From an uncultured Candidatus Saccharibacteria bacterium (GTDB lineage Bacteria > Patescibacteriota > Minisyncoccia > Phycocordibacterales > UBA9973): a stretch of 44,603 nt of DNA. Under the pieces are notes generated by a model, which ran no database searches, was not told where the DNA came from, and saw only the letters and a program-made list of their open reading frames with translations. Positions within the stretch are counted from its first letter, which is position 1; every line of letters starts with the position of its first letter. A program made the translations under genes and the position numbers. The DNA lies in contig CAYLQJ010000002.1 of NCBI GenBank assembly GCA_964385945.1, forward strand, positions 1-44,603, written 5' to 3'. Positions 5,099-36,602 of the stretch are shown here, one piece after another.

Positions 5099-7348
5099 TT
5101 ATTTTGCTATAGCTTGAGCTTCGTCGAATTTTACAGACAAGAGCTTGGACGCTCCGTCAGAACCAATAGTAACTCCATAGAGGACTCCCGCACGAGACAT
5201 AGTCTCACGGTTGTGAGTCACTACGATGAGCTGAGAATGACGAGAAAGTTTCTCTAACATATCTCCATATTTACGAGAGTTAGCTTCGTCTAGTGCCGCA
5301 TCGGTTTCATCTAGTATTAGAAATGGCGGTGGATTAACAGAAGACATAGCGAAAAGCAAAGCGATAGAAGTTAAAGAGCGCTCACCTCCAGAGAGAGAAT
5401 GAAGTTCTTTTACTTTTTTATGCGGTAGAGATACATCGATATCTATACCCTCTTCGGTGATAACCTCTTCTTCTATCTCAGGGATAATCTCTTCATCGTC
5501 TATATCAGCAACTTCACTCTTTTTCTTTTTACTCTGAATATATATTACGAGTTCTGCATGACCTCCTCCGAACATAAGAGAGAAAAATTCTTTAAATTCT
5601 TTATTAATCTTTTTGATACCTTCCTTGAATTCAATATCTATTTTTACTTTTAGATCAATTATGAGTTGTTGTAGGGATTCGATACTAGCAGTCAGATCTT
5701 CTATTTCTTTAGCCAAGAATAAATCTCTAGTATTTACTTCTTCGTATTCTTTCAAAATATCTCCCATATTTCCAAGTCCGGAATCCTCAAGTTTGATTTT
5801 GATTCTCTCTATACGTCTCTTTAATTCTTCTTGAGAAACCTTATCAAAAGCTTCAACTATTTCAAATGAAACATAAGAATGAATCTCACTTCCAATCAAA
5901 GCTTCACCTTCTTTGATTTCATTATTAAATGCGTCTATCTCACGGCCAAGATTTTCTAATTTAACTTCACAAATAGATAACTTTGAAGAAAGTTCTTGAT
6001 ATTTTACTTTCAAACTAAACTTTTCTCTCTCCTTGTCGCGTCCTTTATCCATCTCTAATTGCACCGCATCTTTTAAATCTTTAATCACCAATAAAATCTT
6101 TTCTTCTTCAAACTTGATCTTGTTCATCTCATCTAAGACTTGCTTGTGAGCGTTTTCCATCTCCAAGATTTCGCCTTCATCAGAATGCGAATCATGAAGA
6201 TTGCTATTATCTATAGCGTTGAATTTCACAAAAATTCCTTTGATATTACGCAAGATATTTTTTATTTCTGAAATATCTTCTGTCTCCAAAGCAAGATCAA
6301 TAGAAGTATCAACTTCATCTATAATTTGTTTTAATTCGTCTTGATGGAATATCTTTACCTCAGGCATTTTCTCCTTTCTCCATTTGCGAGCTTCTATCAT
6401 ACCTTCAATGCGTCCGAGTTTACGTTCTATCTCGCCCTTAAATCTACGAATATTGGTTATCTCGTGTTCGGCTTTTTTAAGTTCTTCTAGTTTTTGATTC
6501 TCGACGCTATTAACATCATCTAAATCTTCATTGATGAGTATGCTTAATTTGTCTAATTCTATTTTTAAATTCTCGCGCTCTGGAATGAGATTTTTCTTTT
6601 CACTTTCTAAATACACACTTTCTTTTTTCAAAAATTCCACATACAAAGAAGAAAGTTCTACTTTCAACTCTTTCATTTTTTCTAATTTCTCTATTTGCTT
6701 CTTTAGGAATGACAAATGCGGAGCATTTTCTCTTTTGAGTAATACTACTTCTTTGAGATTGTCATTAGAGCGTTCCAGTTTTCTTTCTGATTCTTTTATT
6801 TTATATTGAAATACCTTGAGTCCCAAAGCATCTTCTATCATCTCTCTTTTATCGCGAGCGTTCGCATTCAATATCCTATCAGCCTCTCCCTGAGAAATGA
6901 TATGGTGTCCAGAAGAACCAATATTTACCGAAGCGAGAAGGCTATTAATATCTTTCAATCTAACTTCAGATCCATTTAAAATATATTTATTTAAGCCGTC
7001 CGCATAAACTTCACGAGAAATACTAACCACATCGTAGTTGAGATTTACATCTTCCCCACCGTCGTTTGATAATTTAAATATTCTATCAGTATTATCAAAA
7101 TAAATAGTTGCTGTAGCCTTGGTACCTTTAGGTAAACTCTTGGAACCTTTGAATATTAGATCTACTCCTCCGCGTCCGCGCATGGATTTCATAGATTGTT
7201 CTCCTAACACGAAACGAAAAGCCTCCACGACGTTACTCTTACCTGAACCATTCGGCCCTACAATAGAGACTACTGGTGTATTAAATTCTAAATTAGTTTT
7301 TTTAGAGAAAGACTTGAAACCATTTATTTCTAAATTATTAAGTCTCAT
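5099..7348 (-). CDS. smc: SMC-family chromosome segregation ATPase, unusually short (about 749 aa) with no recognisable hinge
   Basis: N-terminus MRLNNLEINGFKSF...GPNGSGKSNVVEAFRFVLGEQS (Walker A). C-terminus LSGGERSLTSIALLFA (signature) and FLILDETDAALD (Walker B). The ORF-track start 7363 is a TTG; ATG 7348 gives the canonical SMC N-terminus, 2 nt after the rnc stop. Confidence 0.85.
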   Translation of the reverse strand: MRLNNLEINGFKSFSKKTNLEFNTPVVSIVGPNGSGKSNVVEAFRFVLGEQSMKSMRGRGGVDLIFKGSKSLPKGTKATATIYFDNTDRIFKLSNDGGEDVNLNYDVVSISREVYADGLNKYILNGSEVRLKDINSLLASVNIGSSGHHIISQGEADRILNANARDKREMIEDALGLKVFQYKIKESERKLERSNDNLKEVVLLKRENAPHLSFLKKQIEKLEKMKELKVELSSLYVEFLKKESVYLESEKKNLIPERENLKIELDKLSILINEDLDDVNSVENQKLEELKKAEHEITNIRRFKGEIERKLGRIEGMIEARKWRKEKMPEVKIFHQDELKQIIDEVDTSIDLALETEDISEIKNILRNIKGIFVKFNAIDNSNLHDSHSDEGEILEMENAHKQVLDEMNKIKFEEEKILLVIKDLKDAVQLEMDKGRDKEREKFSLKVKYQELSSKLSICEVKLENLGREIDAFNNEIKEGEALIGSEIHSYVSFEIVEAFDKVSQEELKRRIERIKIKLEDSGLGNMGDILKEYEEVNTRDLFLAKEIEDLTASIESLQQLIIDLKVKIDIEFKEGIKKINKEFKEFFSLMFGGGHAELVIYIQSKKKKSEVADIDDEEIIPEIEEEVITEEGIDIDVSLPHKKVKELHSLSGGERSLTSIALLFAMSSVNPPPFLILDETDAALDEANSRKYGDMLEKLSRHSQLIVVTHNRETMSRAGVLYGVTIGSDGASKLLSVKFDEAQAIAK

Positions 7349-10958: not shown

Positions 10959-11001
10959 GTATATGAAAAGACTCATAAATTTGATACTATTTAAAGATAC
11001 T

Positions 11002-12744
11002 ATGGAAAACAAAGACTTACAAAACAAAAGACATACTTTAGCCCACTTGCTCGCAAGTGCAGTTTTAGAAATTTATCCTGATACTAAAAACACTATCGGT
11101 CCCGCTATAGACGACGGATTTTATTATGATTTTGAATTTTCTACCCCAATTTCTGATAAAGACTTAGCTCAAATAGAGAACAAGATGAGAAAGATGTTGC
11201 CTAAATGGATAGAATTCTCACATCAAGAAAAGACCAAAGAAGAAGCAAGTGAGTATTTTCAAAATAATCCTTATAAATTAGAACTCATAAATGAGATAGC
11301 CGAAAAAGGTGAAAAAATAACTTTCTATACTTGTGGAGATTTTACTGATCTTTGCCGTGGAGGACATTCTGAAAATCCTAGTAAAGAAATCAATATTGAT
11401 TCATTCAAGCTCGATCGCGTCGCGGGAGCGTATTGGAGAGGAGATGAGAAGAATAAAATGCTAACTCGTATTTACGGACTCGCTTTTGAAACTAAAGAAG
11501 AATTAGAATCCTATTTAAATCAAAGAGAAGAAGCTCGCAAAAGAGATCACAAGAAGCTCGGTCGCGAATTAGACTTATTTACTTTTTCAGAATTAGTAGG
11601 AGCAGGTCTTCCCCTTTTCACTCCCAAAGGGACTCTAGTTAGAGATTTACTGGACGGTTTCGTTTGGGAACTCCGCCAAAAGGTAGGATACGAAAGAGTA
11701 GATATTCCTCATATTACCAAAAAAGAATTGTACGTTACTTCAGGCCACTGGGATAAATTCAAAGATGATTTATTCAGAATAAATACTCGTGAGGAACATG
11801 AATTCGCCATGAAACCAATGAATTGCCCTCACCACACTCAGATATATAACCGTCGTCAATGGAGTTATAAAGAACTTCCTCAAAGATATGCTTCTACAAC
11901 GAAAGTTTATCGCGACGAACAAACTGGTGAACTTGGAGGACTTTCTCGTGTACGTTCTATTACTCAGGACGACGCTCATGTATTCTGTAGACTAATTGAC
12001 GCTGGAATAGAAATGGAAAGAATTTATAATATTATAAAAACTTTTTATGGAGCTTTCGGTTTCGTTTTAACACCTAGACTTTCAATGCATGATCCAGCAA
12101 ATATGACTGCTTATCTAGGTACAGAAGAAACTTGGCAAAATTCAGAAAAAGCTCTTCGTGACATAATATTAAAAAATGGTGAGACTCCCATAGAAGCTCT
12201 CGGTGAAGCTGCTTTCTACGGACCAAAGATAGACTTCTTGGCAAAAGATGCTATTGGAAGAGAACACCAAGTCGCAACTATTCAACTCGATATGAATATG
12301 CCAGATAGATTTGATTTGTATTGTATCAATGAACAAGGAGAACAAGAGCGCATTGTTATGATTCACGCAGCTATTATGGGATCTATAGAGAGATTCATGT
12401 CTGTACTCATTGAACATGTAGGAGGTGCATTCCCTACCTGGCTTTCCCCTGTCCAAGTCTCTATCGTACCGGTCAGAGAGAATCATAATGATAAAGCTAG
12501 AGAAATCTATGAAGCTCTAAAACGCGAAGATATACGAGTAGAATTAGAAGACGACAATAATTCATTAGGTAAAAGAATCAACCATGCTAAAGCTCAAAAA
12601 GTCCCATACGTAGTAGTCTTAGGTGACAAAGAACTCGAGAGTGGAAATCTCACAGTAGAAAGTCGTACCGATAAACAAGAAATAACTCTAGAGAATTTCA
12701 TTCTAAAACTAAAAGAAGAAATTAAAAATAAAACTTTGAATTAA
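11002..12744 (+). CDS. thrS: Threonyl-tRNA synthetase lacking the N-terminal TGS domain
   Basis: Starts directly in the editing/second additional domain (RHTLAHLLASAV..., DLCRGGHSENPS). Class II core follows (FAMKPMNCPHHTQIY, YRDEQTGELGGLSRVRSITQDDAHVF), then the anticodon-binding domain. An alternative ATG at 10963 adds 13 aa. Confidence 0.95.
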   Translation: MENKDLQNKRHTLAHLLASAVLEIYPDTKNTIGPAIDDGFYYDFEFSTPISDKDLAQIENKMRKMLPKWIEFSHQEKTKEEASEYFQNNPYKLELINEIAEKGEKITFYTCGDFTDLCRGGHSENPSKEINIDSFKLDRVAGAYWRGDEKNKMLTRIYGLAFETKEELESYLNQREEARKRDHKKLGRELDLFTFSELVGAGLPLFTPKGTLVRDLLDGFVWELRQKVGYERVDIPHITKKELYVTSGHWDKFKDDLFRINTREEHEFAMKPMNCPHHTQIYNRRQWSYKELPQRYASTTKVYRDEQTGELGGLSRVRSITQDDAHVFCRLIDAGIEMERIYNIIKTFYGAFGFVLTPRLSMHDPANMTAYLGTEETWQNSEKALRDIILKNGETPIEALGEAAFYGPKIDFLAKDAIGREHQVATIQLDMNMPDRFDLYCINEQGEQERIVMIHAAIMGSIERFMSVLIEHVGGAFPTWLSPVQVSIVPVRENHNDKAREIYEALKREDIRVELEDDNNSLGKRINHAKAQKVPYVVVLGDKELESGNLTVESRTDKQEITLENFILKLKEEIKNKTLN

Positions 12745-12782
12745 AAAAACCTTAACTGTATAAATCCACTGTTAAGGTTTTC
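12743..12782. terminator. Bidirectional intrinsic terminator (thrS and the convergent orphan ORF)
   Basis: A-run, stem ACCTTAAC / GTTAAGGT (12749-12756 / 12771-12778), T-run. Confidence 0.7.
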
Positions 12783-12803
12783 AGATTTGCAAAAATCCTT
12801 TAT

Positions 12804-13241
12804 TTATTTTTTATAAACTAATAAAACCTTTACCATTTTAACTAATCTAGCTCCGAAAGATTCCATTAATATTATTTCCTCATCTCTGTCCTTAGGTTTT
12901 TGATTATGTATCTCTAAAACAAAATAATCTGACAACTCTTCGACAGATGAAGTTGAACATTTAACATGATCACCACCCCTTACAACTGAAGATGTGTGGC
13001 GAAATTGTTTCACATTAAAAATCTCTTTTGTTTCGGTAAAAGATAAATCGAAAAGATAAAGATGACAAGATTCATATTCTTCGTCTAACCCATAAGCATA
13101 GAAATCAAAATGCTTGAGGTTTCCAGTAAAAAAATGATCAAAAACCAAAAAGACACTCTGTCCAGTACTAATATTTTCGAACTTCAAAACTTGACCAGGT
13201 AGTAAATTTTGAAACTCTTTGAGAGAATTTAAAACAGTCAT
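12804..13241 (-). CDS. Hypothetical protein (145 aa), cassette ORF 1
   Basis: ORF preceded by conserved promoter block A. No motif recognised. Confidence 0.55.
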   Translation of the reverse strand: MTVLNSLKEFQNLLPGQVLKFENISTGQSVFLVFDHFFTGNLKHFDFYAYGLDEEYESCHLYLFDLSFTETKEIFNVKQFRHTSSVVRGGDHVKCSTSSVEELSDYFVLEIHNQKPKDRDEEIILMESFGARLVKMVKVLLVYKK

Positions 13242-13264
13242 AATGTATTAAATTTAAATGTGAT

Positions 13265-13318
13265 TTAAAAAGAAGTATTCTCCAAAACAATAACATTTTT
13301 AGATAAAATAGCAAGAAA
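13265..13318 (-). promoter_or_regulatory. Conserved promoter/operator block, copy A
   Basis: Minus strand: TTGCTA (13314-13309), 16 nt, TATTGT (13292-13287) with TG one nt upstream. About 90 percent identical to copies B and C. Confidence 0.55.
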
Positions 13319-13345
13319 ACAAAAACCTCTCAGACTTGAGAGGTT
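13316..13345 (-). terminator. Intrinsic terminator of the 13344-13805 gene
   Basis: Stem AACCTCTCA / TGAGAGGTT (13324-13332 / 13337-13345), 4-nt loop. The minus-strand RNA is followed by UUUUUGUUUU. Confidence 0.7.
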
Positions 13346-13805
13346 AATCTATATACTTTATTTCAATACCCAATTCTTCTGCTGTTTCGTGCTCCCAGAT
13401 AGCGCCTTTGGAACTTTGCCAATTGGGTAAAAAATAAAAAGTTTTGACTTTGCCAGACTTAAAAATTGGCAAATAAAAATCATTCATAATACTTTGATAA
13501 ACTTTTTCTTTATCTTGCTCTTCTGCTTTAAATTTTTGAATAGTTTCTTCGAAAGGCATTTGGTCAAAAATATTTATATTTTGTGATTGTAATTTTTTAA
13601 TATTTTGATTAAAAAAATCTAAGTTCTTTTCTATAGAATTAAAACCTCCATTAGTAACAGGTCCGCAAACTTGGCCTACAGGCAAAGGGATCCTATCAAT
13701 AATCCTTTCTGCAATAATAAAAAGATCAGGAATATTTTTAGCATTCGCTAAATCTTCCCAATCTTTTTCTTCCCAATATTTTAAAGTTATTTCACTAAAA
13801 TTCAT
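13344..13805 (-). CDS. Hypothetical protein, possibly DUF4406 / nucleoside 2-deoxyribosyltransferase-like
   Basis: VCGPVTNGG...NIFDQMPFE... and the C-terminal YFLPNWQSSKGAIWEHETAEELGIEI resemble the DUF4406 pattern (ISGPxTG ... LPGWxxSxGAxxExxxAxxLG), recalled from memory. The ORF-track start 13907 would include a terminator hairpin (13861-13879), so ATG 13805 is preferred. Confidence 0.4.
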   Translation of the reverse strand: MNFSEITLKYWEEKDWEDLANAKNIPDLFIIAERIIDRIPLPVGQVCGPVTNGGFNSIEKNLDFFNQNIKKLQSQNINIFDQMPFEETIQKFKAEEQDKEKVYQSIMNDFYLPIFKSGKVKTFYFLPNWQSSKGAIWEHETAEELGIEIKYID

Positions 13806-13832
13806 AATATAAATAAAATGTAACATAAATGC

Positions 13833-13860
13833 AATAAAAATTAAAGTTTGAATTAAAAAA
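13833..13860 (+). pseudogene. Short relic of the thrS 3' end (third copy)
   Basis: AAAGTTTGAATTAAAAAA (13843-13860) is an 18/18 match to the thrS-tail relic at 14950-14967 (..K S L N stop). As in the other two copies, a terminator hairpin follows directly. Confidence 0.4.
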
Positions 13861-13879
13861 CCAGAACTATGAGTTCTGG
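13855..13879 (-). terminator. Intrinsic terminator of the 13918-14193 gene
   Basis: Perfect 8-bp stem CCAGAACT / AGTTCTGG (13861-13868 / 13872-13879), 3-nt loop. The minus-strand RNA is followed by UUUUUU. Confidence 0.7.
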
Positions 13880-13917
13880 CAAAATATTCAACTTTGTATA
13901 TCATCAACTTAGCGAAT

Positions 13918-14193
13918 TTAATTACTCAATTTTTTCCCATTAAGCAATTGGGATATTTCTTCTTTTAGTAAATCTAAGTCTAAAACTCCTAAACGCTTGA
14001 AATCAGTTGAACCTCTTTTACTGTCTTTTGTTTTTTGCTTTTTGTGTAGTTTCCCACATTCATAAATTATATCTGCAATAAGTTGAAAAAATGGGTCCTC
14101 TCCTTCCTTTACCTCATTCAAAGAAGGATGAGCATGAACATCAGCACCTACAAGATACAATTTAAGTAGTTTTTTCTTTTCTTGCTCAGTCAT
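13918..14193 (-). CDS. Small hypothetical protein (91 aa), cassette ORF 2; paralog of 15021-15293
   Basis: YLVGADV...EGEDPFFQLIADIIYECGKLHKK aligns with YLLGIGG...QGKDKYFKIITDLLYDCGTRHKK in the 90-aa ORF. It has its own promoter block B and terminator. Confidence 0.6.
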   Translation of the reverse strand: MTEQEKKKLLKLYLVGADVHAHPSLNEVKEGEDPFFQLIADIIYECGKLHKKQKTKDSKRGSTDFKRLGVLDLDLLKEEISQLLNGKKLSN

Positions 14194-14214
14194 AAGTATT
14201 AAATTTAAAAAGTT

Positions 14215-14268
14215 ATTTAAAAAGAAATATTCCCTAAAACAATAACATTTTTAGGCAAAATAGCAAGA
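14215..14268 (-). promoter_or_regulatory. Conserved promoter/operator block, copy B
   Basis: Minus strand: TTGCTA (14266-14261), 16 nt, TATTGT (14244-14239). The inverted repeat CCTAAAA-N9-TTTTAGG (14233-14255) brackets the -10 box. Confidence 0.55.
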
Positions 14269-14364
14269 TTACTGTTCTAGATAAGACCTGCACCGTAATT
14301 TTACATAATATAAAAAATAAGCTAATATAAAAATGAATATCTTGTAACTCTTAAAAAAATAATT

Positions 14365-14757
14365 ATGTCTTACCAATCTTTAGAAATCAAAGATTTATAC
14401 ATTAAATCTCTTAATGAACAAAATGACACTCTTTTGGTAGCTATCTATCATTTATTAAACACAATTAATGGCTATCATTCTGTCACAGTAAAAGAATTAA
14501 ACGATTATTCTATAATAAAGGAAGAATCATTAAGGGAAAAAATAAAAATAATTCTTAAAACAAACAAACCACTTGATTTATTTAATACACTCTTAGAAAA
14601 TTCACCTAAAGAAGATGCAAAAAAATATCTTCTAAACTTAAAAGAAGAATTTATTCATACTATTTTATCTAGTCCTTATAATCAATCCAGATTCTCAGGA
14701 AGAAGAGCAAAAATGTTCACAAAAACAACAACAGAAAACATCAATCAAATACATTAA
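14365..14757 (+). CDS. Hypothetical protein (130 aa)
   Basis: ORF followed by a strong terminator. No motif recognised. Confidence 0.5.
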   Translation: MSYQSLEIKDLYIKSLNEQNDTLLVAIYHLLNTINGYHSVTVKELNDYSIIKEESLREKIKIILKTNKPLDLFNTLLENSPKEDAKKYLLNLKEEFIHTILSSPYNQSRFSGRRAKMFTKTTTENINQIH

Positions 14758-14761
14758 AATT

Positions 14762-14797
14762 AAAAGAGATAACCTTTATGGGATTATCTCTTTTTTA
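14762..14797. terminator. Bidirectional intrinsic terminator
   Basis: Perfect 8-bp stem AGAGATAA / TTATCTCT (14765-14772 / 14784-14791), A-run before and TTTTTT after. Confidence 0.75.
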
Positions 14798-14798
14798 T

Positions 14799-14840
14799 TT
14801 ATATATCAATCTCAGCAAGCTTCGCGTTAGATTGAACAAA
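14799..14840 (-). pseudogene. Displaced relic of the gyrB 3' end (last 13 codons + stop)
   Basis: Minus-strand translation is FVQSNAKLAEIDI* versus the real gyrB C-terminus FIQSNAKLAEIDI* (15794-15835). 9 of 42 nt differ and 8 of those are synonymous. Confidence 0.75.
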
Positions 14841-14866
14841 TTGTGCAACATCCGATGTTGCACAAT
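14840..14866. repeat. Perfect 12-bp inverted repeat with 3-nt spacer at the gyrB-relic / thrS-relic junction
   Basis: ATTGTGCAACAT-ccg-ATGTTGCACAAT (14840-14851 / 14855-14866). Confidence 0.9.
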
Positions 14867-14876
14867 GCGCAATTAA

Positions 14877-14963
14877 GTAGAAAGTCGTACAGACAAACAA
14901 GAAATGACCCTAGATAATTTCATTCTAAAACTTAAAGAAGAAATAAAAAAAAGTTTGAATTAA
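14877..14963 (+). pseudogene. Displaced relic of the thrS 3' end (28 codons + stop)
   Basis: Translates in frame to VESRTDKQEMTLDNFILKLKEEIKKSLN* versus the real thrS end VESRTDKQEITLENFILKLKEEIKNKTLN* (12655-12744). Most nt differences are synonymous, plus one codon indel. Confidence 0.85.
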
Positions 14964-15000
14964 AAAAGCCTTAACTATATAAATATATAATTAAGACTTT
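14962..15000. terminator. Terminator hairpin homologous to the thrS terminator; better in the minus orientation (serves the 15021-15293 gene)
   Basis: Stem GCCTTAA / TTAAGAC (one mismatch) at 14968-14974 / 14991-14997. The minus-strand RNA is followed by UUUUUU; the plus strand has only TTT. Confidence 0.5.
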
Positions 15001-15020
15001 CAAATGTATTAAAACTAAAA

Positions 15021-15293
15021 TCAACTTTCAAACAAAAGCTCATTCACAGCTGATGTTTGGAGCGTTACTTTAATTGATTTTGGAGCACGACAAGGATTTC
15101 TTAATTTTTTGGCTTTTTCAAGTTCTTCTATGTCTTTTTTATGACGTGTACCACAATCATAAAGTAAATCAGTAATAATTTTAAAATATTTGTCTTTCCC
15201 TTGTTGTAAATAAATCAAGCCGGCTGTATTACCGCCAATTCCAAGAAGATAGGCTCTAAGGATTTGTTTTATAAAAGTAATTTTATCTAACAT
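15021..15293 (-). CDS. Small hypothetical protein (90 aa), cassette ORF 3; paralog of 13918-14193
   Basis: See the paralog alignment above. Preceded by promoter block C. Confidence 0.6.
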   Translation of the reverse strand: MLDKITFIKQILRAYLLGIGGNTAGLIYLQQGKDKYFKIITDLLYDCGTRHKKDIEELEKAKKLRNPCRAPKSIKVTLQTSAVNELLFES

Positions 15294-15315
15294 GTTAAAA
15301 AATTAAGTTGTGAAA

Positions 15316-15368
15316 TAAAAAGAAATATTCCCTAAAACAATAACATTTTTAGGCAAAATAGCAAGAAA
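15316..15368 (-). promoter_or_regulatory. Conserved promoter/operator block, copy C
   Basis: Minus strand: TTGCTA (15364-15359), 16 nt, TATTGT (15342-15337). Nearly identical to copy B over about 50 nt. Confidence 0.55.
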
Positions 15369-15395
15369 GAATTAAAAATTAAAAATGTAGGTTTA

Positions 15396-15788
15396 TTAAC
15401 TTACCCTACTAGTAATAAACAGAGAATCGAACATTTGGAATTTGTACCATACATATAAAATAATAAATAATACAAATAAACTTATTATTAATGATAAAAT
15501 TGAATATTTTTCCGCTCCCTTTTGAGATCTAAAAAATAAATTCAAAGCAAAGAAAATAGATAAAACATTAAAAATTAATATTAAAATTGGTAAAAGAAAG
15601 CCTAACTTTTCTAACCCAGAAGATGATTCACCCTTCATACCTAATCCAAAGCTTATAGCTATCATTATCATAAACAACAAAAAAAATAAAAAATTAAAAC
15701 CAATTTGGAAAAATGGAAGTGCTATTTCCCACTTACTTCTAATTTGTTTTTGATTACTAGGTTCTTGTTTAATATTTATTTCAACCAT
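15396..15788 (-). CDS. Hypothetical integral membrane protein (130 aa)
   Basis: Three to four hydrophobic helices. Starts 5 nt after the gyrB stop, so it is probably co-transcribed. Confidence 0.55.
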   Translation of the reverse strand: MVEINIKQEPSNQKQIRSKWEIALPFFQIGFNFLFFLLFMIMIAISFGLGMKGESSSGLEKLGFLLPILILIFNVLSIFFALNLFFRSQKGAEKYSILSLIISLFVLFIILYVWYKFQMFDSLFITSRVS

Positions 15789-15793
15789 ATTTT

Positions 15794-17887
15794 TTAGATA
15801 TCAATCTCAGCGAGTTTGGCATTACTTTGAATGAATGATTTTCTTGGAGGGACTTCAGAACCCATCAATATATCAAATACTTTATTGGCTTCTTCAGCGT
15901 TAGCTATGTCTACTCTTTTCAAGACTCTCTTCTTTGGATCCATAGTAGTCTCCCAGAGTTCTTCAGGATTCATTTCTCCGAGACCTTTATATCTTTGGAT
16001 GTGGAATTTAGTAGATTTTGCTTTAGTTACTTCTTCACTCTCTTCCCCTTCTTCTTCAATAGTTTGAACTTCTTCATTTTGAATCTCAGAAATATCAACC
16101 TCTTTACCTATGATTTTATTTCTCTCTTCATCAGTATAAGCGTAATGAATCTCTTTACCTCTCTTGATTTTATAAAGTGGTGGTTGAGCGATATATACAT
16201 ACCCCGCTTCTAGAACTGGTCTAAAATATCTATAGAATAAAGTTAGGAGCAATGTACGGATGTGTGATCCGTCGACGTCAGCATCCGTCGCGATTATGAT
16301 TTTGTGATAACGAATTTTTTCAAGATCAAAAGTATCTCCGATAGAAGTTCCCATAGCTATAACTAGGGCACGGACTTCTTTAGAAGCGAGCATCTTATCA
16401 ATACGAGCACGTTCGACGTTCAATATCTTTCCACGGAGTGGGAGAATAGCTTGAGTACGTCTATCACGGCCTTGCTTGCCAGACCCACCCGCAGAATCTC
16501 CCTCCACTATGAATATCTCAGATTCTTCGGCGCTCTTACTCTGGCAGTCAGCAAGCTTACCAGGGAGAGTCATACCTTCAAGCGCACCTTTACGTAATAC
16601 GGAATCTTTCGCGGCTTTGGCTGCTTTACGAGCTTTAAGAGCTAGGATCGATTTGTTGATTATTATCTTTGCTTCATCAGGATTCTCTTCTAAGAAACTA
16701 GCGAAAGCTTCTCCAAAAACAGTAGCTGTGGCTCCTTGAGCTTCCATACTACCAAGTTTAGCTTTAGTTTGACCTTCGAATTGTATTTCACGAAGTTTGA
16801 CTGAAACCACAGCCGTCAAACCTTCGAGGACGTCTTCCCCGGTGAATCCTCCTTCTGCCTCCTTCATCATTTCATTCTTTTTACAATAAGTGTTCAGCGT
16901 ACGAGTGAGTGCAGTTTTAAAACCTGTGATATGAGTACCACCTTGAGGTGTGTGAATGTTGTTAGCAAATCCTACGATACGATCTACGATATCATCTACG
17001 TATTGCAAAGCTATTTCAACTCCCACGCCATCGATTTCTTTTTCAATATAGAAAATATTATTTTGAATTGCTTTTTGGAATTTGTTGTAATATTTAACAA
17101 GAGAGATAAGTCCTCCTTCGAAATAATAACTAATAGAAGGTACTTCGAGACCTAATTCTCTAAAATAATAAACATCCTCAAGATTTAATTTAGAACCTTT
17201 AGAATATACTAGAGTCTCAGCATCCATCTCTCTCGCATCAATCACAGAGATTTTTAATCCCCTGACGAGGTAAGCTTGTTGGCGAATATGGTTTATCACA
17301 GTACTCCAATCAAAAACAATTTTCCCGAAGATTTCTTCGTCTGGAGTAAAAGTAATTATTGTTCCGTGAAGTTTAGAAGTTCCAATTTTCTTTACTGCTC
17401 CCTTTTTCTTTCCTTGAGAATATTCTTGCATGTGCTTGCCTCCGTCTCGGTGAACTTCAGCACGACAGAAAATAGAAAGAGCGTTCACGACGGACGCTCC
17501 CACTCCGTGAAGACCTCCAGAAACTTTATATCCACTTCCGTCCCCACCGAATTTTCCTCCCGCATGCAGAGTAGTCATGACTGTTTCTAATGCAGAAACT
17601 TTAGTCTTGCTGTGAAGATCCACTGGGATTCCACGACCGTTATCCACGACGCGAATAGTATTCCCTGGTAGTAAAGTTATCTCAATATCATCACAAAAAC
17701 CTCCCATAGCTTCATCGCGTGAGTTGTCGAAAATTTCCCAAATAAGGTGATGAAGACCGTCTGGACCTGTTGTACCGATATACATTCCGGGACGCTTACG
17801 AACCGGCTCTAGACCCTCTAAGACGGATATCTGATCCGCTCCATAGCTACCCTCTTTTGATTTTTTAGTTTCTTTTTCCTTTGCCAT
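15794..17887 (-). CDS. gyrB: DNA gyrase subunit B
   Basis: GHKL ATPase motifs (LHHLIWEIFDNSRDEA, DNGRGIPV, GGLHGVGASVVNALS), Toprim (EIFIVEGDSAGGS, IIIATDADVDGSHI) and the C-terminal tail QRYKGLGEMNPEELWETTM. Confidence 0.97.
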   Translation of the reverse strand: MAKEKETKKSKEGSYGADQISVLEGLEPVRKRPGMYIGTTGPDGLHHLIWEIFDNSRDEAMGGFCDDIEITLLPGNTIRVVDNGRGIPVDLHSKTKVSALETVMTTLHAGGKFGGDGSGYKVSGGLHGVGASVVNALSIFCRAEVHRDGGKHMQEYSQGKKKGAVKKIGTSKLHGTIITFTPDEEIFGKIVFDWSTVINHIRQQAYLVRGLKISVIDAREMDAETLVYSKGSKLNLEDVYYFRELGLEVPSISYYFEGGLISLVKYYNKFQKAIQNNIFYIEKEIDGVGVEIALQYVDDIVDRIVGFANNIHTPQGGTHITGFKTALTRTLNTYCKKNEMMKEAEGGFTGEDVLEGLTAVVSVKLREIQFEGQTKAKLGSMEAQGATATVFGEAFASFLEENPDEAKIIINKSILALKARKAAKAAKDSVLRKGALEGMTLPGKLADCQSKSAEESEIFIVEGDSAGGSGKQGRDRRTQAILPLRGKILNVERARIDKMLASKEVRALVIAMGTSIGDTFDLEKIRYHKIIIATDADVDGSHIRTLLLTLFYRYFRPVLEAGYVYIAQPPLYKIKRGKEIHYAYTDEERNKIIGKEVDISEIQNEEVQTIEEEGEESEEVTKAKSTKFHIQRYKGLGEMNPEELWETTMDPKKRVLKRVDIANAEEANKVFDILMGSEVPPRKSFIQSNAKLAEIDI

Positions 17888-21594: not shown

Positions 21595-22113
21595 TTATAA
21601 ATTTTGTAAAAGTAAATCACTATAAGAAACAGAAATATAATCTTCTTTTTTGATAGCTAATTTTTCAATATAAGTTTGACATTGCTCCTCTAATTTTTCT
21701 TTACCAATTGTTCCATCACTATCAATTGCCTCAATTTCCACAAAAGTACCCAAATCTTTTACTGTATCAATATGAAATTTTACATTTTCAATAAAATATA
21801 TTTCTCTAATCTTGTCCACCACAGTAAGTATTCCATTCGCGTTTATTAACACATCTTTTAGATTTGATTGCGGATTAGATTCATATAGTAAAACTTTCGA
21901 TTGTTTTGGTGTTAATGAATTTTCTCTTTCATAATAAACCAAAAAGTTTTCTATATTCCCCTCACGAAGCTTTAGGCGACCATTCGCTACTTTGAAATAA
22001 GTGTCGATTTGATGGTCTGTTCCTTTGAAATCAGCCGCTAATTTAAGTAAGGTATTCCTAATAAGATTATGATCATCACATTTTGCTTTTATCTCTATAT
22101 TTAAATGTTTCAT
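21595..22113 (-). CDS. CYTH-domain protein (class IV adenylate cyclase / triphosphatase family)
   Basis: Size (172 aa) and N-terminal strand HLNIEIKAK (ExExK-like, first Glu replaced by Asn). Alternating beta-strand pattern with conserved acidic/basic residues (RLKLRE, FVEIEA). Confidence 0.6.
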   Translation of the reverse strand: MKHLNIEIKAKCDDHNLIRNTLLKLAADFKGTDHQIDTYFKVANGRLKLREGNIENFLVYYERENSLTPKQSKVLLYESNPQSNLKDVLINANGILTVVDKIREIYFIENVKFHIDTVKDLGTFVEIEAIDSDGTIGKEKLEEQCQTYIEKLAIKKEDYISVSYSDLLLQNL

Positions 22114-22119
22114 GAATGT

Positions 22120-22147
22120 ATTTTATCAGTTTATTAAATTACTGCAA
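22120..22147 (-). promoter_or_regulatory. Sigma70-like promoter of the CYTH gene (leaderless geometry)
   Basis: Minus strand: TTGCAG (22147-22142), 16 nt, TAAAAT (22125-22120), 6 nt, ATG 22113. Confidence 0.4.
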
Positions 22148-22154
22148 ACTAATA

Positions 22155-22179
22155 ACTCTTGAGGCCTTGCCTAAAGAGT
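22155..22179. repeat. REP-like hairpin, copy 1 (overlaps the transposase stop codon)
   Basis: ACTCTTGAGGC-ctt-GCCTAAAGAGT: 11-bp stem with one G/A mismatch. Confidence 0.8.
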
Positions 22180-22833
22180 TTTATCGTAATTAATCCAGTC
22201 AAAAATTTCAGTATTAAAAGCTTTCTTAGTTGGGAAATAGTTTGGAAAATTTTCTAAATTTAATATCTTTTTCTCAGTTCTGTCTATTTCTAAAAAATCA
22301 ACATAACTAGAATATAAATAATTAGAAAGATAATCTAAAGATTGTTTTTTGTTTTTTATACCCCTTTCTTTCCAATCTTTTTGTATCAACTTAACAGGAT
22401 TTAAATGAATATAAGAAAATATATATTTTAAATATTTATCATTCTTTATATATTGAGCTTTAAATTTACCTTCGAATAAACTACCAGTTCTTTTATATTT
22501 AAGATTAAAATACATAACATAAGCAGTAGAAAGTTTTTGCATAAATCGACTAACCCCATTTTCTACAAGAGGTGTTATTAAAATGTGAAAATGATTTGGC
22601 ATTAGACAATATGAACCGACAGCAACTAACGGACTTTGATTTGATCTGTTATAAACAGAAACACCTTTTAAAGAGTCAGAAAAATTAAATTTATCTTCAT
22701 TATTTAAAGCATACAATAAATCTCTAAACCTTAAATAATCATTTTTATCTAAAAATATTTCTTGCTTACTATTTCCTCTGTTGTACAGATGATAAAACTC
22801 TCCAATTTCAAATTTTATATTTCTAATAGACAT
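22171..22833 (-). CDS. REP-associated tyrosine transposase (IS200/IS605-like Y1 HUH family)
   Basis: HUH motif in CLMPNHFHILITP. Catalytic-Tyr region YIFSYIHLNPVK. Size 220 aa. Confidence 0.8.
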   Translation of the reverse strand: MSIRNIKFEIGEFYHLYNRGNSKQEIFLDKNDYLRFRDLLYALNNEDKFNFSDSLKGVSVYNRSNQSPLVAVGSYCLMPNHFHILITPLVENGVSRFMQKLSTAYVMYFNLKYKRTGSLFEGKFKAQYIKNDKYLKYIFSYIHLNPVKLIQKDWKERGIKNKKQSLDYLSNYLYSSYVDFLEIDRTEKKILNLENFPNYFPTKKAFNTEIFDWINYDKTL

Positions 22834-22855
22834 AATTATATTATATACCCAACTT

Positions 22856-22880
22856 ACTCTTGAGGCAAGGCCTAAAGAGT
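22856..22880. repeat. REP-like hairpin, copy 2 (upstream of the transposase)
   Basis: ACTCTTGAGGC-aag-GCCTAAAGAGT: same arms and same mismatch as copy 1, but the loop is reverse-complemented. Confidence 0.8.
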
Positions 22881-27747: not shown

Positions 27748-28545
27748 ATGGAATCTATGAATACACACCTCGAGTATAAAATAATTAAAACTATCCCGGA
27801 AAATTATACTTTAGCTAAAGAAACAGGTGTCGAAAGCTTAATAACCAAAGAATGCTTTGGAGACCCTAGTGTTGTTACGTGCATCGATGAAGGATCTAAC
27901 TCTCATTCTGCTAATCACACCAAAGATGCTTATACCTTAAACCTTGCTGGTTCAGGAATATTATTAGGCATAGATAAAACAGTAGAAATTTTTAGAAATA
28001 ATAAAGACTTACAAAAATCCATAAAAACCATCACTTGGCATGAAGGTTGCGGAGCCGCAGCATTAGCACAACAAAGTAATCCAGACATCACCGCTGAAGG
28101 TTTCGTCCTCGAACTCGCTAAGAGATTAAAAGAAGAGCTTGATATGGATTGTGAAGTATTAAAGATTAAAGGAGAAAAAGAGGCAGAAGAAGATGCAGCT
28201 CTGACTAGACCTTTCGAGTACCATAATGCTATGTCTGTATATGTGAACGGAACCACTAAAGCCTTTGACTATTTCAAAAATGATACTTTACCAGCTGGTT
28301 TTACTTTAGACTCTGGATATTTTGGAAAAGAAGTAGCTGAAAAAGAATTAGCTGTGGTATTGAGTATTGCTTTTGGAGGACATGGAATGAATGAATTGAT
28401 AACCAAAGAAGATCCTTTTATTATTAATTATATAAATGAGGAGAATACAAAATCTATTCCTAATTGGATCCTAGATACAGTTAATACTTCAGGAATACCT
28501 ATAGATAAAATCAAAATTAATCTTGTAACAAGTGATACTAATTAA
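27748..28545 (+). CDS. Hypothetical protein with a beta-carbonic-anhydrase-like Cys-x-Asp ... His-x2-Cys arrangement
   Basis: VVTCIDEG (C58, D60 in ORF-track numbering) and TWHEGCGAA (H111, C114), with spacing similar to beta-CA zinc ligands. The ATG at 27709 overlaps a TGaTATTAT -10-like box, so 27748 or 27757 is more likely. Confidence 0.5.
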   Translation: MESMNTHLEYKIIKTIPENYTLAKETGVESLITKECFGDPSVVTCIDEGSNSHSANHTKDAYTLNLAGSGILLGIDKTVEIFRNNKDLQKSIKTITWHEGCGAAALAQQSNPDITAEGFVLELAKRLKEELDMDCEVLKIKGEKEAEEDAALTRPFEYHNAMSVYVNGTTKAFDYFKNDTLPAGFTLDSGYFGKEVAEKELAVVLSIAFGGHGMNELITKEDPFIINYINEENTKSIPNWILDTVNTSGIPIDKIKINLVTSDTN

Positions 28546-29296
28546 TCTCAAACTTCCCTATTTTAGTTCTTTTGATAGTATAGGCTAAACTAGGTATAGA
28601 TATTTTATTTCCTAAATCGTTAGCAATGGTGCGAACGTACGTACCACTAGTAGCTTTGATTTTGAAATTAGCGACGAAAAAATGCTTCGGCATTTTTTCG
28701 TCGCTAAGAAGTTTCCCCCAAATCTTTAATATCTCCTTTTGACGAAAGTCACCTTTAACTTTATTTATTCTAATTTCTATATCCTTCAAAAGTTTCTCCG
28801 AAGATACTTTTTTAAGATTTAAATATTTTAAACTTTTTACATTAACTTCCCTCTCAGGAATCTCAACCTCTGTATTCTCACGCGCATAAGTGAATAACGG
28901 CTTCCCTGCGACAGTCTTTGAAGAATACATGGGATATTTTTGAATTATTTGTCCTTTAAAATATTTCAGATTTTTCTTGATTAATTTTTCTAAATCCTCT
29001 CCAGACAGAGGTTTAGACTCTGTCTCTAACACTTTACCTAAAATATCATATGTGTCAGTTTTGAAACCAAATAACACTGAGAATTCATATTCTTTGTCTA
29101 GATTTAAATACTTTTCTTTATTTTTGCACTCTTCTCCTGAGAGAATAATCAATAATCCTGAAGCCAGAGGATCGAGCCTCCCCGCATAAGTCATAGGTAT
29201 ATCAAGAGGAATCTTATTCTTAATACGAAACACCTCTAGGGATTCTAGAGGTGTTTCGCCTTCTTTTTTATTTACTAGATAAAACTTTTTTTGCAT
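28538..29296 (-). CDS. truB: tRNA pseudouridine synthase, TruB family (no PUA domain)
   Basis: Catalytic motif YAGRLDPLASGLLIIL (compare GTLDPxAxGvL). Also KEYEFSVLFGFKTDTYDILG and TSGTYVRTIANDLG. Confidence 0.8.
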   Translation of the reverse strand: MQKKFYLVNKKEGETPLESLEVFRIKNKIPLDIPMTYAGRLDPLASGLLIILSGEECKNKEKYLNLDKEYEFSVLFGFKTDTYDILGKVLETESKPLSGEDLEKLIKKNLKYFKGQIIQKYPMYSSKTVAGKPLFTYARENTEVEIPEREVNVKSLKYLNLKKVSSEKLLKDIEIRINKVKGDFRQKEILKIWGKLLSDEKMPKHFFVANFKIKATSGTYVRTIANDLGNKISIPSLAYTIKRTKIGKFEIN

Positions 29297-35954: not shown

Positions 35955-35994
35955 AATTTATTTTTTTTTATTTATAATATAAAAGCTTAATATT

Positions 35995-36003
35995 ATTATA
36001 TCA
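35995..36003 (-). promoter_or_regulatory. Extended -10 box TGATATAAT of the second pilin gene
   Basis: The minus strand reads caTGaTATAAT, about 40 nt upstream of ATG 35954. Confidence 0.45.
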
Positions 36004-36015
36004 TGACTAATATAT

Positions 36016-36044
36016 AAAAAACCACTTTTTTGAAGTGGTTTTTT
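36016..36044 (-). terminator. Intrinsic terminator after the first pilin gene
   Basis: Stem AACCACTT / AAGTGGTT (36020-36027 / 36033-36040), flanked by an A-run and a T-run. Confidence 0.75.
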
Positions 36045-36072
36045 ATATTACATTTATTTTTCTTATGAAAAA

Positions 36073-36528: not shown

Positions 36529-36602
36529 AATATATATTTGATTAATAATAAAAACTTTTAATAATTTTAATAAAATAATTTCGACTTTATTTTTATACTT
36601 AA

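Follow-up and report, generated by a model that had tools for sequence, protein, structure and literature searches.

A REP-like hairpin of a CPR-wide family lies at the seam between displaced gyrB and thrS tails

The REPtrons of Proteobacteria combine REP/BIME sequences with RAYT (TnpA_REP) genes (PMC3333891, PMC3116915, PMC6006769; structure 4ER8). Canonical REPs have a conserved 5′ GT[AG]G at the foot of the hairpin, which the atypical subclasses 2.6 and 3 lack (PMC6006769). TnpA_REP of E. coli cleaves at a distance from the REP and performs strand transfer, and the authors argue that the unit can sequester gene fragments (PMC3333891). Nearly all work on REP/RAYT systems has been done in Proteobacteria, and their cellular role is still debated; a literature search returned no paper linking RAYT or TnpA_REP with the CPR. 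Here we describe an arrangement of the REP/RAYT kind in a new form, in which the hairpin occupies a seam flanked by displaced essential-gene tails. It lies between thrS and gyrB in the window (the whole 44.6-kb stretch of DNA that was analysed), and its features are collected in Table 1.

Table 1. Features of the thrS–gyrB interval and of the Y1 unit in the window
Feature	Position	Strand	Description
Intact thrS	10963..12744	+	From the ORF list; last 29 codons (12654–12744) are the counterpart of thrS′; the identical gene in L001 has the Pfam domains tRNA_SAD, tRNA-synt_2b and HGTP_anticodon
Unit A cargo	12804..13907	-	ORF145 12804–13241; promoter-like block copy 1 13235–13316; terminator 13324–13345; ORF187 with DUF4406 tail 13344–13907
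Third, short thrS-tail relic (thrS″)	~13832..13870	+	Last few codons, stop and start of the terminator hairpin; seam of units A and B
Unit B	13918..14794	.	ORF91 13918–14193 (-); promoter-like block copy 2 14187–14268; ORF130 14365–14757 (+); bidirectional terminator 14762–14794
gyrB′ relic	14799..14840	-	13 codons and stop; equals the tail of intact gyrB in strains with the single-unit allele
PAL	14840..14866	.	Perfect palindrome ATTGTGCAACAT-CCG-ATGTTGCACAAT; REP-like hairpin of the type flanking RAYT-like Y1 genes in CPR
Linker between PAL and thrS′	14867..14876	.	10 nt, GCGCAATTAA; read from the sequence
thrS′ relic with its own terminator region	14877..15005	+	28 codons and stop at 14877–14963
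Unit C cargo	15021..15788	-	ORF90 15021–15293 (orphan, paralogue of ORF91); promoter-like block copy 3 15285–15366; membrane ORF130 15396–15788
Intact gyrB	15794..17887	-	Last 13 codons (15794–15835) are the counterpart of gyrB′
REPtron-like unit	22155..22880	-	Y1 HUH gene 22171–22833 with 25-nt hairpins at 22155–22179 and 22856–22880

We analysed the displaced tails by translation and alignment. The gyrB′ relic translates to FVQSNAKLAEIDI* and the tail of the real gyrB to FIQSNAKLAEIDI*; they are identical at 33 of 42 nt, and the nine differences comprise eight synonymous ones, including a TCT/AGT switch for serine, and one Val/Ile, as the first-pass annotation had read this copy. Its claim that a thrS relic is joined to the gyrB′ tail was borne out by translation and BLAST: thrS′ translates to VESRTDKQEMTLDNFILKLKEEIKKSLN*, is ~88% identical to the real thrS tail, and its homology continues beyond the stop into the terminator (14876–15005 versus 12654–12786; BLAST E ~1e-34 to 1e-36). 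The arrangement thrS – X – gyrB′ / thrS′ – Y – gyrB does exist, with whole inter-gene intervals stacked in it. X and Y do contain paralogous small ORFs (ORF91 and ORF90) and the same promoter-like block, of which there are three copies, two of them 100% identical over 51 nt. The stack consists of three units rather than two, because a third thrS-tail relic, thrS″ (87% identical to 14942–14978 over 39 nt in a local alignment), is present; each unit starts with such a relic. A homologue search with ORF90 returned none, and the cargo ORFs had no convincing match among PADLOC defence families.

Four independent assemblies (JGI, ENA megahit k87, ENA scaffold and Logan), made by different pipelines from different samples, have the same junction without a difference. 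Their overall identity to the window is 99.1–100%, and across 12640–15958 it is 100%. The junction is also present in Logan contigs from three wastewater runs. The source is metagenomic, and some chimeric joints are marked by palindromic linkers, so that a joint formed during assembly or library preparation, carrying an adapter-like palindrome, had to be considered. Apart from the recurrence of the junction, the assemblers' k exceeds the length of the palindrome, whose motif is restricted to Patescibacteria across unrelated studies. We regard an artefact as extremely improbable, and the earlier suspicion of an artefact signature is refuted.

In this Patescibacterium of wastewater, the thrS–gyrB spacer is a hypervariable hotspot. 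Relatives have an empty site, thrS – 32-nt terminator – gyrB (depth 259 in run X4), a single-unit allele (run X6; joint 14831→15827) or a different 2.4-kb filling. Contigs L038 and L034 have only the ORF130(+) unit, next to intact gyrB. L038 is 95.3% identical to window positions 14218–14840, the homology ending at the first base of PAL, and thrS and gyrB of its lineage are only ~85% identical to those of the window. Because unit B is thus much closer to this lineage than the flanking genes are, and because X and Y differ in gene content, DNA from different lineages was combined. The tandem duplication or unequal exchange proposed at first reading therefore stands as regards the stacking of whole intervals, but a simple intrachromosomal duplication does not fit. 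Strains of 99.1–99.8% identity differ almost only in dense SNP tracts in thrS (12153–12639) and gyrB (16544–16664), with the island (12640–15958) invariant among them; such a pattern is the mark of recombination imports at the flanks. A search for a unit-C-only allele by means of the exact membrane ORF130 returned only the same composite contigs.

Strains would swap alleles of the thrS–gyrB spacer through homologous recombination in both flanking essential genes, and in the lineage of the window three alleles would have been added successively and not replaced. Each addition would bring in a fresh gene tail and leave the old one as a relic (thrS″, thrS′, gyrB′), giving an accretion geometry of gene body / new tail / cargo / seam / old tail. 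The donor piece would be the interval of a neighbour strain with 28 codons of thrS and 13 codons of gyrB. It may have closed into a circle and then entered through one crossover within the short homology of the tails; alternatively, incoming DNA may have been joined illegitimately, anchored by homology. No circular or excised form was seen in the contigs, which were searched in place of raw reads.

Exactly between the ends of the gyrB′ and thrS′ relics lies the palindrome TTGTGCAACAT-CCG-ATGTTGCACAA (PAL), which is perfect (12+3+12) and sits at the junction as first described. PAL is single-copy in the window even with up to 3 mismatches (0 matches in 100 shuffles), and is open in three of three frames on both strands. 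Its foot is TTGTG...CACAA, with neither GTAG nor GTGG. The 10-nt linker that follows may be a degenerate extra half-arm, as suggested by comparison of ATGCGCAAT with ATGTTGCACAAT; at no fewer than eight other loci (L009, L014, L018, L019, L028, L030, L032 and L033) an extra arm adjoins PAL.

Several readings of PAL were tried and rejected. It is not an intrinsic terminator: the terminator scan passes over PAL, which has no T-run, and calls its neighbours at 13324–13345, 13860–13880 and 14762–14794, which speaks against the terminator-type repeat that the first-pass annotation had allowed for. Rfam contained no relevant RNA family for PAL. A transcription-factor operator cannot account for the in-frame genic copies or for the co-variation with Y1 described below. 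Abutted terminal inverted repeats of a DDE element are at odds with the rarity of lone arms and the lack of a DDE transposase, and a CRISPR repeat with irregular spacings of 350–1300 nt and genes in between. The nearby gyrB and the extra half-arms beside PAL had prompted readings as an oriC/DnaA-box cluster or a replication terminus/dif; GC skew, however, tracks gene orientation with no switch at 14.8 kb, and PAL flanks Y1 genes instead.

As single-stranded DNA, PAL folds into a perfect, stable hairpin (−12.4 kcal/mol, z = −4.9), and palindromes are known fragile sites. The hairpin could thus have acted as structure only, with cruciform or hairpin cutting or stalled replication (SbcCD-type cleavage, template switching) producing an illegitimate joint and no dedicated HUH enzyme involved. 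This leaves unexplained why the same sequence and loop are conserved across CPR classes and flank Y1 genes, and it would still require PAL to be present beforehand at a breakpoint inside a gene; we consider it quite improbable.

PAL is a member of a CPR-wide family of REP-like hairpins linked to Y1 genes. The search of other genomes that had been advised returned 24 distinct exact sites in public genomes and metagenomes, 16 of them with a CCG/CGG loop. GTDB genomes contained 11 PAL stretches (<1 expected by chance), 10 of the 11 in Patescibacteria, and metagenomes contained 18; viral contigs gave no match. The same 25-nt sequence is kept across CPR lineages with GC contents from 29 to 49%. The uniqueness initially noted holds within the window but not outside it, and the palindrome is not a one-off product of the junction but belongs to a dispersed, conserved repeat family. 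Exact matches number only 1–3 per genome; most of the 24 sites are away from any Y1 gene, and two contigs have several copies. An in-frame PAL inside mnmA of L005 changes the length by only one residue, and the Y1 genes of L041 and L043 have palindrome copies in frame inside them. Among 31 oriented PAL sites there was no conserved cleavage or target motif and no flank consensus.

Small PAL arrays bound cargo genes at spacings of 350–700 nt (L010, L023, L009 and L014). Together with the symmetry of the site and its 11–12-bp arms, these arrays would suit a core site, dif/Xer-like or attC-like, at which a site-specific recombinase of the tyrosine or serine type moves the units as cassettes. There is, however, no recombinase gene in or near the island or beside PAL arrays, where Y1 is the neighbour, and no integrase family is represented among the genes called from 7.7 to 24.8 kb or beside the arrays. 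In addition, the 3-nt centre misfits overlap regions of 6–8 bp, the lack of a skew switch argues against a terminus/dif position, and PAL copies also occur in frame inside genes. Such a recombinase site is very improbable.

PAL lies directly on both sides of the Y1 genes of L010, L023 and L039, and a variant of it does so in L031. More distant Y1 genes (L041, L043 and L045) are flanked by TTGTnnAACAY-nnn-RTGTTnnACAA palindromes, and those of the window and of L011 by palindromes unrelated to PAL; two Y1/hairpin types coexist in L011 and L031. The Y1 proteins form at least 668 clusters at 90% identity with HUH and Tyr motifs, each cluster on essentially one contig context, and NHFH and SYIHxNP are invariant in alignments of 7 and of 30 members. 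Y1 proteins score 32.2–32.8 bits against Pfam Y1_Tnp (cut-off 23) and 33–44 bits against the NCBIfam RAYT equivalog, below its cut-off of 80. Because PAL flanks RAYT-like Y1 genes on both sides in several CPR genomes, a substrate of a Y1 HUH enzyme is the option that we favour among the three initially put forward for the palindrome.

The Y1 protein of the window scores 32.2 bits for Pfam Y1_Tnp and 40 bits for NCBIfam REP_Tyr_transpos (cut-offs 23 and 80, respectively), and is 35% identical to the PAL-flanked Y1 of L010 (E = 2e-33). In fold, its structural model comes closest to 4ER8, the complex of the E. coli RAYT with a REP hairpin (TM 0.64 on the target); further fold matches, shared with the IS200/IS605 family (PF01797), are 2XM3, 2A6O and 2VJU. 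A CYTH gene neighbours Y1 in the window as well as in L045, a synteny that points to vertical inheritance of Y1. The hairpin of the window's Y1, ACTCTTGAGGC-CTT/AAG-GCCTAAAGAGT (25 nt), differs from PAL, and this Y1 is not the cognate of PAL. That the one Y1 gene seen in the window goes with another hairpin than PAL speaks against a causal role; two types can coexist, as L011 and L031 show.

The same geometry of relics is found at other loci. L023 reads tig – PAL – Y1 – PAL – 8 nt – tig′ relic – PAL – carbamoyltransferase gene (named pyrB), and its seam PAL is the boundary of the inserted REPtron itself. L028 consists of the tail of an unnamed gene, a REP cluster, HicA-containing cargo and a tail relic, with no palindrome at the cargo/relic seam. 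In the window, the seam of units A and B (13807–13832) has no palindrome either: a PAL-like remnant at 13817–13834 is not significant, as 29% of random segments score equally. Both L023 and L028 show a displaced tail next to such palindromes. Because the A/B seam and the L028 seam lack a palindrome, stacking does not strictly need one.

These two seams are also what would be expected if ordinary recombination (a circle and a single crossover, or homology-facilitated illegitimate recombination in transformation) had made the main seam, and a mobile PAL had later transposed into dead DNA. PAL-type elements insert at many unrelated places, genes included, and a relic junction is among the few truly neutral spots of a compact genome. 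Chance placement is nevertheless unlikely, because the sole PAL in 44.6 kb sits exactly between two relic ends; we estimate the probability of its landing within a few bases of the relic–relic boundary at well below 1% if noncoding sites are equally likely. Furthermore, the seam PAL of L023 bounds the inserted REPtron, and neither a target duplication nor a preferred target motif is visible. A later arrival of PAL is possible, but rather unlikely.

Enzymes of the Y1 kind recognise such hairpins in single-stranded DNA, cut close by or further away, and rejoin strands. The most likely course is that the joint of the gyrB interior to the thrS interior was made or closed either by a Y1 enzyme acting on the PAL hairpin or by the end of that hairpin; a joint made at the hairpin would capture both gene fragments. 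That PAL or Y1 made the seam, as opposed to PAL arriving later, we infer with about even confidence. As an enzyme cannot create a 27-nt sequence, PAL must either have been captured or have been there already at one of the partners. No allele with PAL pre-existing at one partner was found, and a search for any protein, GyrB or other, with in-frame CATSDVAQ followed by FVQSNAKLAEIDI gave only a spurious leucine-rich-repeat match in a library of 50% representatives, which could easily miss one. Taken as a whole, it is rather probable that alleles were stacked at a hotspot and that a REP-like HUH substrate marks, and probably helped to make, the main seam.

A broader scheme, which we put forward only tentatively and think unlikely to hold in full, is a hairpin-guided, integrase-free way of building islands in CPR. 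Y1 would act on PAL-type ssDNA hairpins at forks or on incoming transforming strands and cut at a distance inside genes; segments with cargo and essential-gene 3′ tails would be closed or transferred, and would home to other strains via tail homology. Stacked cassettes between convergent essential genes would result, with the tails as scars.

Our results point to a large RAYT-like gene family in ultra-small CPR bacteria, in which each of at least 668 protein clusters has a palindrome of its own at its flanks and one 25-nt palindrome is kept across widely different lineages. The window presents a concrete genomic outcome, a hairpin exactly at the place where two essential genes became joined, interior to interior, during the stacking of strain-specific cassettes. 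If the link is causal, it would suggest a way, open to test, for streamlined genomes that depend on transformation to acquire and reshuffle small accessory genes in the absence of integrases, and would provide a natural substrate–enzyme pair for the study of HUH strand transfer. If it is not, the locus still illustrates cleanly how alleles accrete at a recombination hotspot.

The CPR loci resemble REP/RAYT systems in having a single-copy Y1 HUH gene with a short hairpin repeat on both sides; further copies may likewise be dispersed in the genome, PAL being mostly away from Y1 with 1–3 exact matches per genome. The hairpin sequence co-varies with the Y1 protein, two types per genome are possible, copies are found in frame in genes (the Y1 gene included), and the fold of the window's Y1 is closest to 4ER8. 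Unlike canonical REPs, PAL has no 5′ GT[AG]G foot, and its arms are perfect, making a fully symmetric 'double-foot'. Its copy number is very low (1–3 per locus), the same 25-nt sequence recurs across CPR lineages, whereas REPs are species-specific, and the CPR Y1 proteins stay below the NCBIfam RAYT cut-off (33–44 versus 80 bits). The position of the window's PAL, at a seam between displaced essential-gene tails, is a further difference.

With the IS200/IS605 elements (IS608 and ISDra2; Y1 transposons with subterminal hairpins, moving by peel-and-paste), the CPR loci appear to share the catalytic domain and hairpin recognition, judging by PF01797 and the predicted fold. The circular single-stranded intermediate of this enzyme class would be a natural way to close a segment. 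Unlike these elements, the CPR Y1 gene is not multi-copy and comes without tnpB, both flanks have the same symmetric hairpin instead of distinct left and right ends, and the 31 PAL sites show no conserved 4–5-nt target or cleavage motif. Xer/dif sites span 28 nt, have a 6-nt centre between two 11-nt arms, and lie at the replication terminus or flank modules on plasmids; PAL has a 3-nt centre, no skew switch at 14.8 kb and no adjacent Xer gene. Integron attC sites are imperfect hairpins that work with IntI and attI, whereas PAL sites are perfect palindromes of 25–27 nt.

Rickettsia palindromic elements, which Ogata et al. reportedly described in 2000, are said to lie in frame in protein-coding genes without breaking them, as PAL does in mnmA of L005; they are 100–150 bp long with no known dedicated enzyme, whereas PAL has 25–27 nt and is linked to Y1. 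Genomic islands accrete at the 3′ ends of genes through integrase att duplications, and homology-facilitated illegitimate recombination is said to have been described in naturally transformable bacteria by de Vries and Wackernagel in 2002. In both, as in the window, successive insertions leave partial duplicates of the target gene's 3′ end, with one side anchored by homology. Unlike accreted islands, the window has no integrase, its units are only 1–2 kb long, and the two convergent flanking genes have each left a relic, the relics meeting head to head with an HUH-type hairpin at the joint. Finally, Shyamala, Schneider and Ames reportedly found (EMBO J, 1990) REP sequences where tandemly duplicated chromosomal segments of Salmonella are joined, and here too a tandem arrangement has a REP-type palindrome precisely at its novel joint. 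In Salmonella two pre-existing intergenic REPs recombine and the copies are identical, whereas in the window the breakpoints lie inside two genes, there is a single palindrome, and the two units stem from different lineages.

We analysed the copies of the gyrB and thrS tails (gyrB' and thrS') that lie displaced on either side of a perfect 27-nt palindrome (PAL) in the thrS–gyrB spacer. Their presence, reported by the first-pass annotation, was confirmed by the translations and by nucleotide comparison. gyrB' is identical to the tail of the real gyrB at 33 of 42 nt, with eight of the nine differences synonymous, a TCT/AGT serine switch among them, while the DNA homology of thrS' to thrS extends beyond the stop codon into the terminator (12654-12786 and 14876-15005). 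Both relics are oriented away from PAL, which therefore joins internal gyrB sequence to internal thrS sequence; the 36 nt between them consist of PAL plus 10 nt. As a DNA hairpin PAL is stable (−12.4 kcal/mol, z = −4.9), and, as had been noticed earlier, it occurs only once in the window, even at 3 mismatches (0 in 100 shuffles).

Features of the window
Feature	Coordinates	Strand	Description
gyrB' relic	14799-14840	-	translates to FVQSNAKLAEIDI*
Real gyrB tail	15794-15835	-	translates to FIQSNAKLAEIDI*
PAL	14840-14866		between gyrB' and thrS'; ATTGTGCAACAT-CCG-ATGTTGCACAAT
thrS' relic	14877-14963	+	translates to VESRTDKQEMTLDNFILKLKEEIKKSLN*; copy of the thrS tail minus one codon
Third thrS-tail relic	~13832-13870		shorter
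Promoter-like block, three copies	13235-13316, 14187-14268, 15285-15366	-	TTGCTA...TATTGT
SNP tracts of four strains, thrS	12153-12639		island between thrS and gyrB tracts invariant
SNP tracts of four strains, gyrB	15959-15998, 16544-16664
Y1 homologue	22171-22833		35% identity to the Y1 protein of L010, E = 2e-33

The junction is real, which refutes the earlier suggestion that the palindrome might be the signature of an artefact. The exact protein of ORF130(+), the gene of the cargo block next to gyrB', was found on contigs of four assemblies (a JGI metagenome, an ENA megahit assembly that is also in NCBI, a second ENA scaffold and Logan), all with the gene order and palindrome of the window at 99.1–100% identity, and with zero base differences across 12640-15958. 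One Logan contig crosses the junction without mismatch, and three wastewater runs contain 96% of the region's sampled words. Nearly all differences between the window and four near-identical strains (99.1–99.8%) fall into dense SNP tracts, of which the one in thrS ends 15 nt short of the duplicated tail. These tracts look like traces of segments imported by homologous recombination on either side of the island.

The third thrS-tail relic means that three units (A, B and C) are stacked in the region. In each, the thrS tail and terminator are followed by a small minus-strand ORF (ORF145, ORF91 and ORF90) and a common promoter-like block, 51 nt of which units B and C share at 100% identity (14218-14268 and 15316-15366). 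The third copy was matched at 13250-13316, and L038, a related genome, also has the block, at 90%. The ORFs behind the blocks of units B and C are only ~30% identical despite the identical block; this identity may come from gene conversion or from strong constraint on a regulatory or 5'-UTR element. The end of ORF187 in unit A (13344-13907) matches DUF4406 (nucleoside deoxyribosyltransferase-like), its likely start being the ATG at 13806 instead of the listed TTG.

The spacer is a hypervariable hotspot whose alleles can be exchanged. Related strains from other wastewater runs include some with an empty site, where thrS is joined to gyrB via a 32-nt terminator (depth 259 in run X4); the window's terminator at 13324-13345, AACCTCTCAAGTCTGAGAGGTT, resembles this filler (AACCTCTCAATGGAGAGGTT...), but on the opposite strand. 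Single-unit contigs of related strains read thrS, short piece, promoter, ORF130(+) and intact gyrB (joint 14831 to 15827), and further contigs carry a different filling of 2.4 kb. Recovered contigs have the order thrS–ORF130(+)–gyrB in L034, a related species, and thrS–small ORF–promoter–ORF130(+)–gyrB in L038. The latter matches the window at 95.3% over 14218-14840, stopping at the first base of the palindrome; unit B with its 13-codon gyrB' tail therefore represents, in the window, an allele found elsewhere directly next to intact gyrB. Since thrS and gyrB of L038 match the window at only ~85%, the unit B allele has moved recently between lineages. The serine codon in the gyrB tails of L038 and L034 is TCN, as in the relic, and AGT in the window's working gyrB, and when the dominant strain of X4 was aligned, its gyrB tail fell on the relic instead of the working tail. 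Sequence comparison suggests that the working tail arrived together with unit C. Plain intrachromosomal duplication does not account for the allele, identity and SNP-tract observations, and thus DNA of different lineages was combined. The tandem duplication or unequal exchange proposed earlier was right in outline as to structure, with accretion of alleles from different lineages taking the place of duplication. As read from the relics, each addition supplied a working tail and pushed the old one aside.

We searched for PAL (TTGTGCAACAT-N1-9-ATGTTGCACAA) in GTDB, one genome per species. Ten of the 11 stretches found are in Patescibacteria (Nomurabacteria, Saccharibacteria, 'Patescibacteria group'), with GC contents of 31–49% and unrelated flanks; we calculate about 0.3–0.7 matches expected by chance in 596 Gb. 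Metagenome contigs yielded 18 further stretches, and the viral contigs scanned gave no match. After duplicate removal there are 24 distinct sites, 16 with a CCG/CGG loop, often with an additional half-arm alongside, and sometimes in small arrays: L010 (1189, 1850, 2556), L023 (10026, 10737, 10860), L009, L014 and L008. In mnmA of L005 PAL (6518-6542) is in frame (CATSDVAQ) in an otherwise normal gene, taking the place of a beta-hairpin loop and adding only one residue relative to solved MnmA structures; gyrB' and PAL are fused in that same reading frame. Also clustered beside PAL are palindromes of a second type, TGTCAAACATCGGGTGTTTGACA with GTGTTTGACA arms in tandem (L009 7276-7313, L028 864-945), a mixture reminiscent of the different REP types within E. 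coli BIMEs. Unrelated perfect palindromic repeats occur twice each in two PAL-bearing CPR (Patescibacteria) contigs (42 nt, L012 3713-3754 and 6678-6719; 39 nt, L007 3667-3705 and 4955-4993). The window itself has two long perfect palindromes (28668-28707 and 29226-29258; 18-bp and 14-bp stems) inside a listed ORF (28538-29296, minus strand), being either palindromes within the gene or terminators, the latter implying an erroneous ORF call. It also has tandem repeats at its very start (1-296; periods 108 and 162 nt) and a 143-nt segment repeated 574 nt apart (35856-36569; 78% identity) over two adjacent minus-strand genes.

The PAL array of L010 brackets a 216-aa gene between tig and clpP, PAL directly adjoining its stop codon and preceding its start by 28 nt. 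The gene encodes a Y1 HUH transposase-like protein, and the same arrangement was found in L023, L031 and L039. This association supports the first-pass proposal of an HUH-enzyme substrate. At the tig–clpP locus of three related genomes (L010 1189-2580, L039 1377-3180, L023 10026-10884) the cargo between PAL copies differs, being a pair of small membrane ORFs, one ORF of 327 aa or a tig relic; PAL thus marks variable-region boundaries there too. The window's own Y1 homologue scores 32.2 bits on Pfam Y1_Tnp (cut-off 23); its best NCBIfam match, 'REP-associated tyrosine transposase', is under that model's cut-off, and its structural model (pLDDT 78) best matches the E. coli RAYT–REP complex 4ER8, with the ISDra2 and IS608 transposases next. 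It is flanked by its own hairpin, unlike PAL, ACTCTTGAGGC-CTT/AAG-GCCTAAAGAGT. A CYTH-domain gene adjoins it (21595-22880) and also its 34%-identical homologue in another CPR genome, L045 (1894-3185), a conserved synteny that points to vertical inheritance and domestication of the gene. The Y1 family comprises at least 668 clusters at 90% identity (E < 1e-10), from sources named Parcubacteria, Nealsonbacteria, Levybacteria and Minisyncoccia. Among members sampled at 52–74% identity, L039 carries PAL on both flanks, while the flanks have TGTTAAACACCGAGTGTTTAACA in L041, TTGTTTAACACCGAGTGTTGAACAA in L043 and TTGTCTAACACCCAGTGTTTGACAA in L045. The L011 contig combines a Y1 gene of the type found in the window, flanked on each side by CTTGGCGGTTTAACCGCCAAG, with one PAL 5.8 kb away; in L031, a related contig, the corresponding PAL adjoins a PAL-type Y1. 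The hairpin therefore co-varies with the Y1 protein, and two types are possible in one genome. The Y1 genes of L041 and L043 also contain their flanking palindrome in frame (1777-1799 and 2671-2693, respectively), at a variable loop that precedes the HUH motif; earlier reports of this concern one proteobacterial RAYT subclass only (PMC6006769).

Displaced tails also lie beside such repeats elsewhere. L023 has the order tig (...MHAENVLTNEKIFQFLENQ*), 3 nt, PAL, Y1, PAL, 8 nt, a tig relic (MHASNILTNEKIFQFLESQ*; 62 nt, 85% identity), 30 nt, PAL and a carbamoyltransferase gene, called pyrB (Pfam OTCace_N and OTCace). The geometry of gene body, new tail, cargo, PAL and old tail is common to L023 and the window, where it can be read from either flanking gene. 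Downstream of an L028 gene that ends ...SQDPKLVVTYTLPVNPKQDVIWFD* come, in order, a terminator, one arm of PAL, several palindromes of the second type, a cargo of two genes and a relic of 72 nt of the same gene's tail (90% identity), with a full PAL 200 nt beyond. The second cargo ORF matches the HicA toxin family just under the Pfam cut-off (26.4 versus 27 bits) and the first has no match. In L028 the palindromes are at the opposite end of the insert. No palindrome was found at the A/B seam of the window, and self-comparison of all fetched loci (~260 kb; a weak control) revealed no further gene-tail relics.

It is possible that the interval of a neighbouring strain, extending at both ends into the flanking genes, was copied as a circle and entered by a single crossover in the short tail homology, which would give exactly thrS–X–gyrB' | closure | thrS'–Y–gyrB. 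Alternatively, incoming DNA, anchored by homology, may have been joined illegitimately. Under either route the 36 nt between the relics would be closure or filler. No circular form was seen among the contigs. Single-stranded DNA is the substrate of Y1 enzymes. E. coli TnpA_REP binds its own hairpin, cuts upstream or downstream of it, even far away, and transfers strands; by this activity, its discoverers argued, the unit can sequester flanking gene fragments (PMC3333891). We give an even chance to a role of the hairpin and its enzyme in making the gyrB'|thrS' joint, favoured because the only PAL in 44.6 kb sits exactly between two relic ends and because the L023 seam is the REPtron's own boundary (a Y1 gene flanked by hairpin repeats). 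The main alternative, that a mobile PAL inserted later into neutral DNA, is consistent with the two seams without a palindrome, and we consider it rather unlikely. As to the role of hairpin and enzyme, comparison of 31 sites found no cleavage motif beside PAL, the only Y1 gene visible in the window is not of the PAL type, and a search for GyrB or another protein with the in-frame PAL peptide found no pre-event allele with PAL at the breakpoint.

According to these results, CPR bacteria have a REP/RAYT-like system, seen in this window at a recombination seam; our literature search for RAYT or TnpA_REP linked with these bacteria found no such paper. The PAL/Y1 loci differ from REPtrons in the missing GT[AG]G foot, the low copy number and one sequence common to distant lineages. 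Their flanking hairpins, the co-variation of hairpin and protein, the possibility of two types in one genome and the in-gene copies, however, match the published description of REPtrons (PMC6006769).
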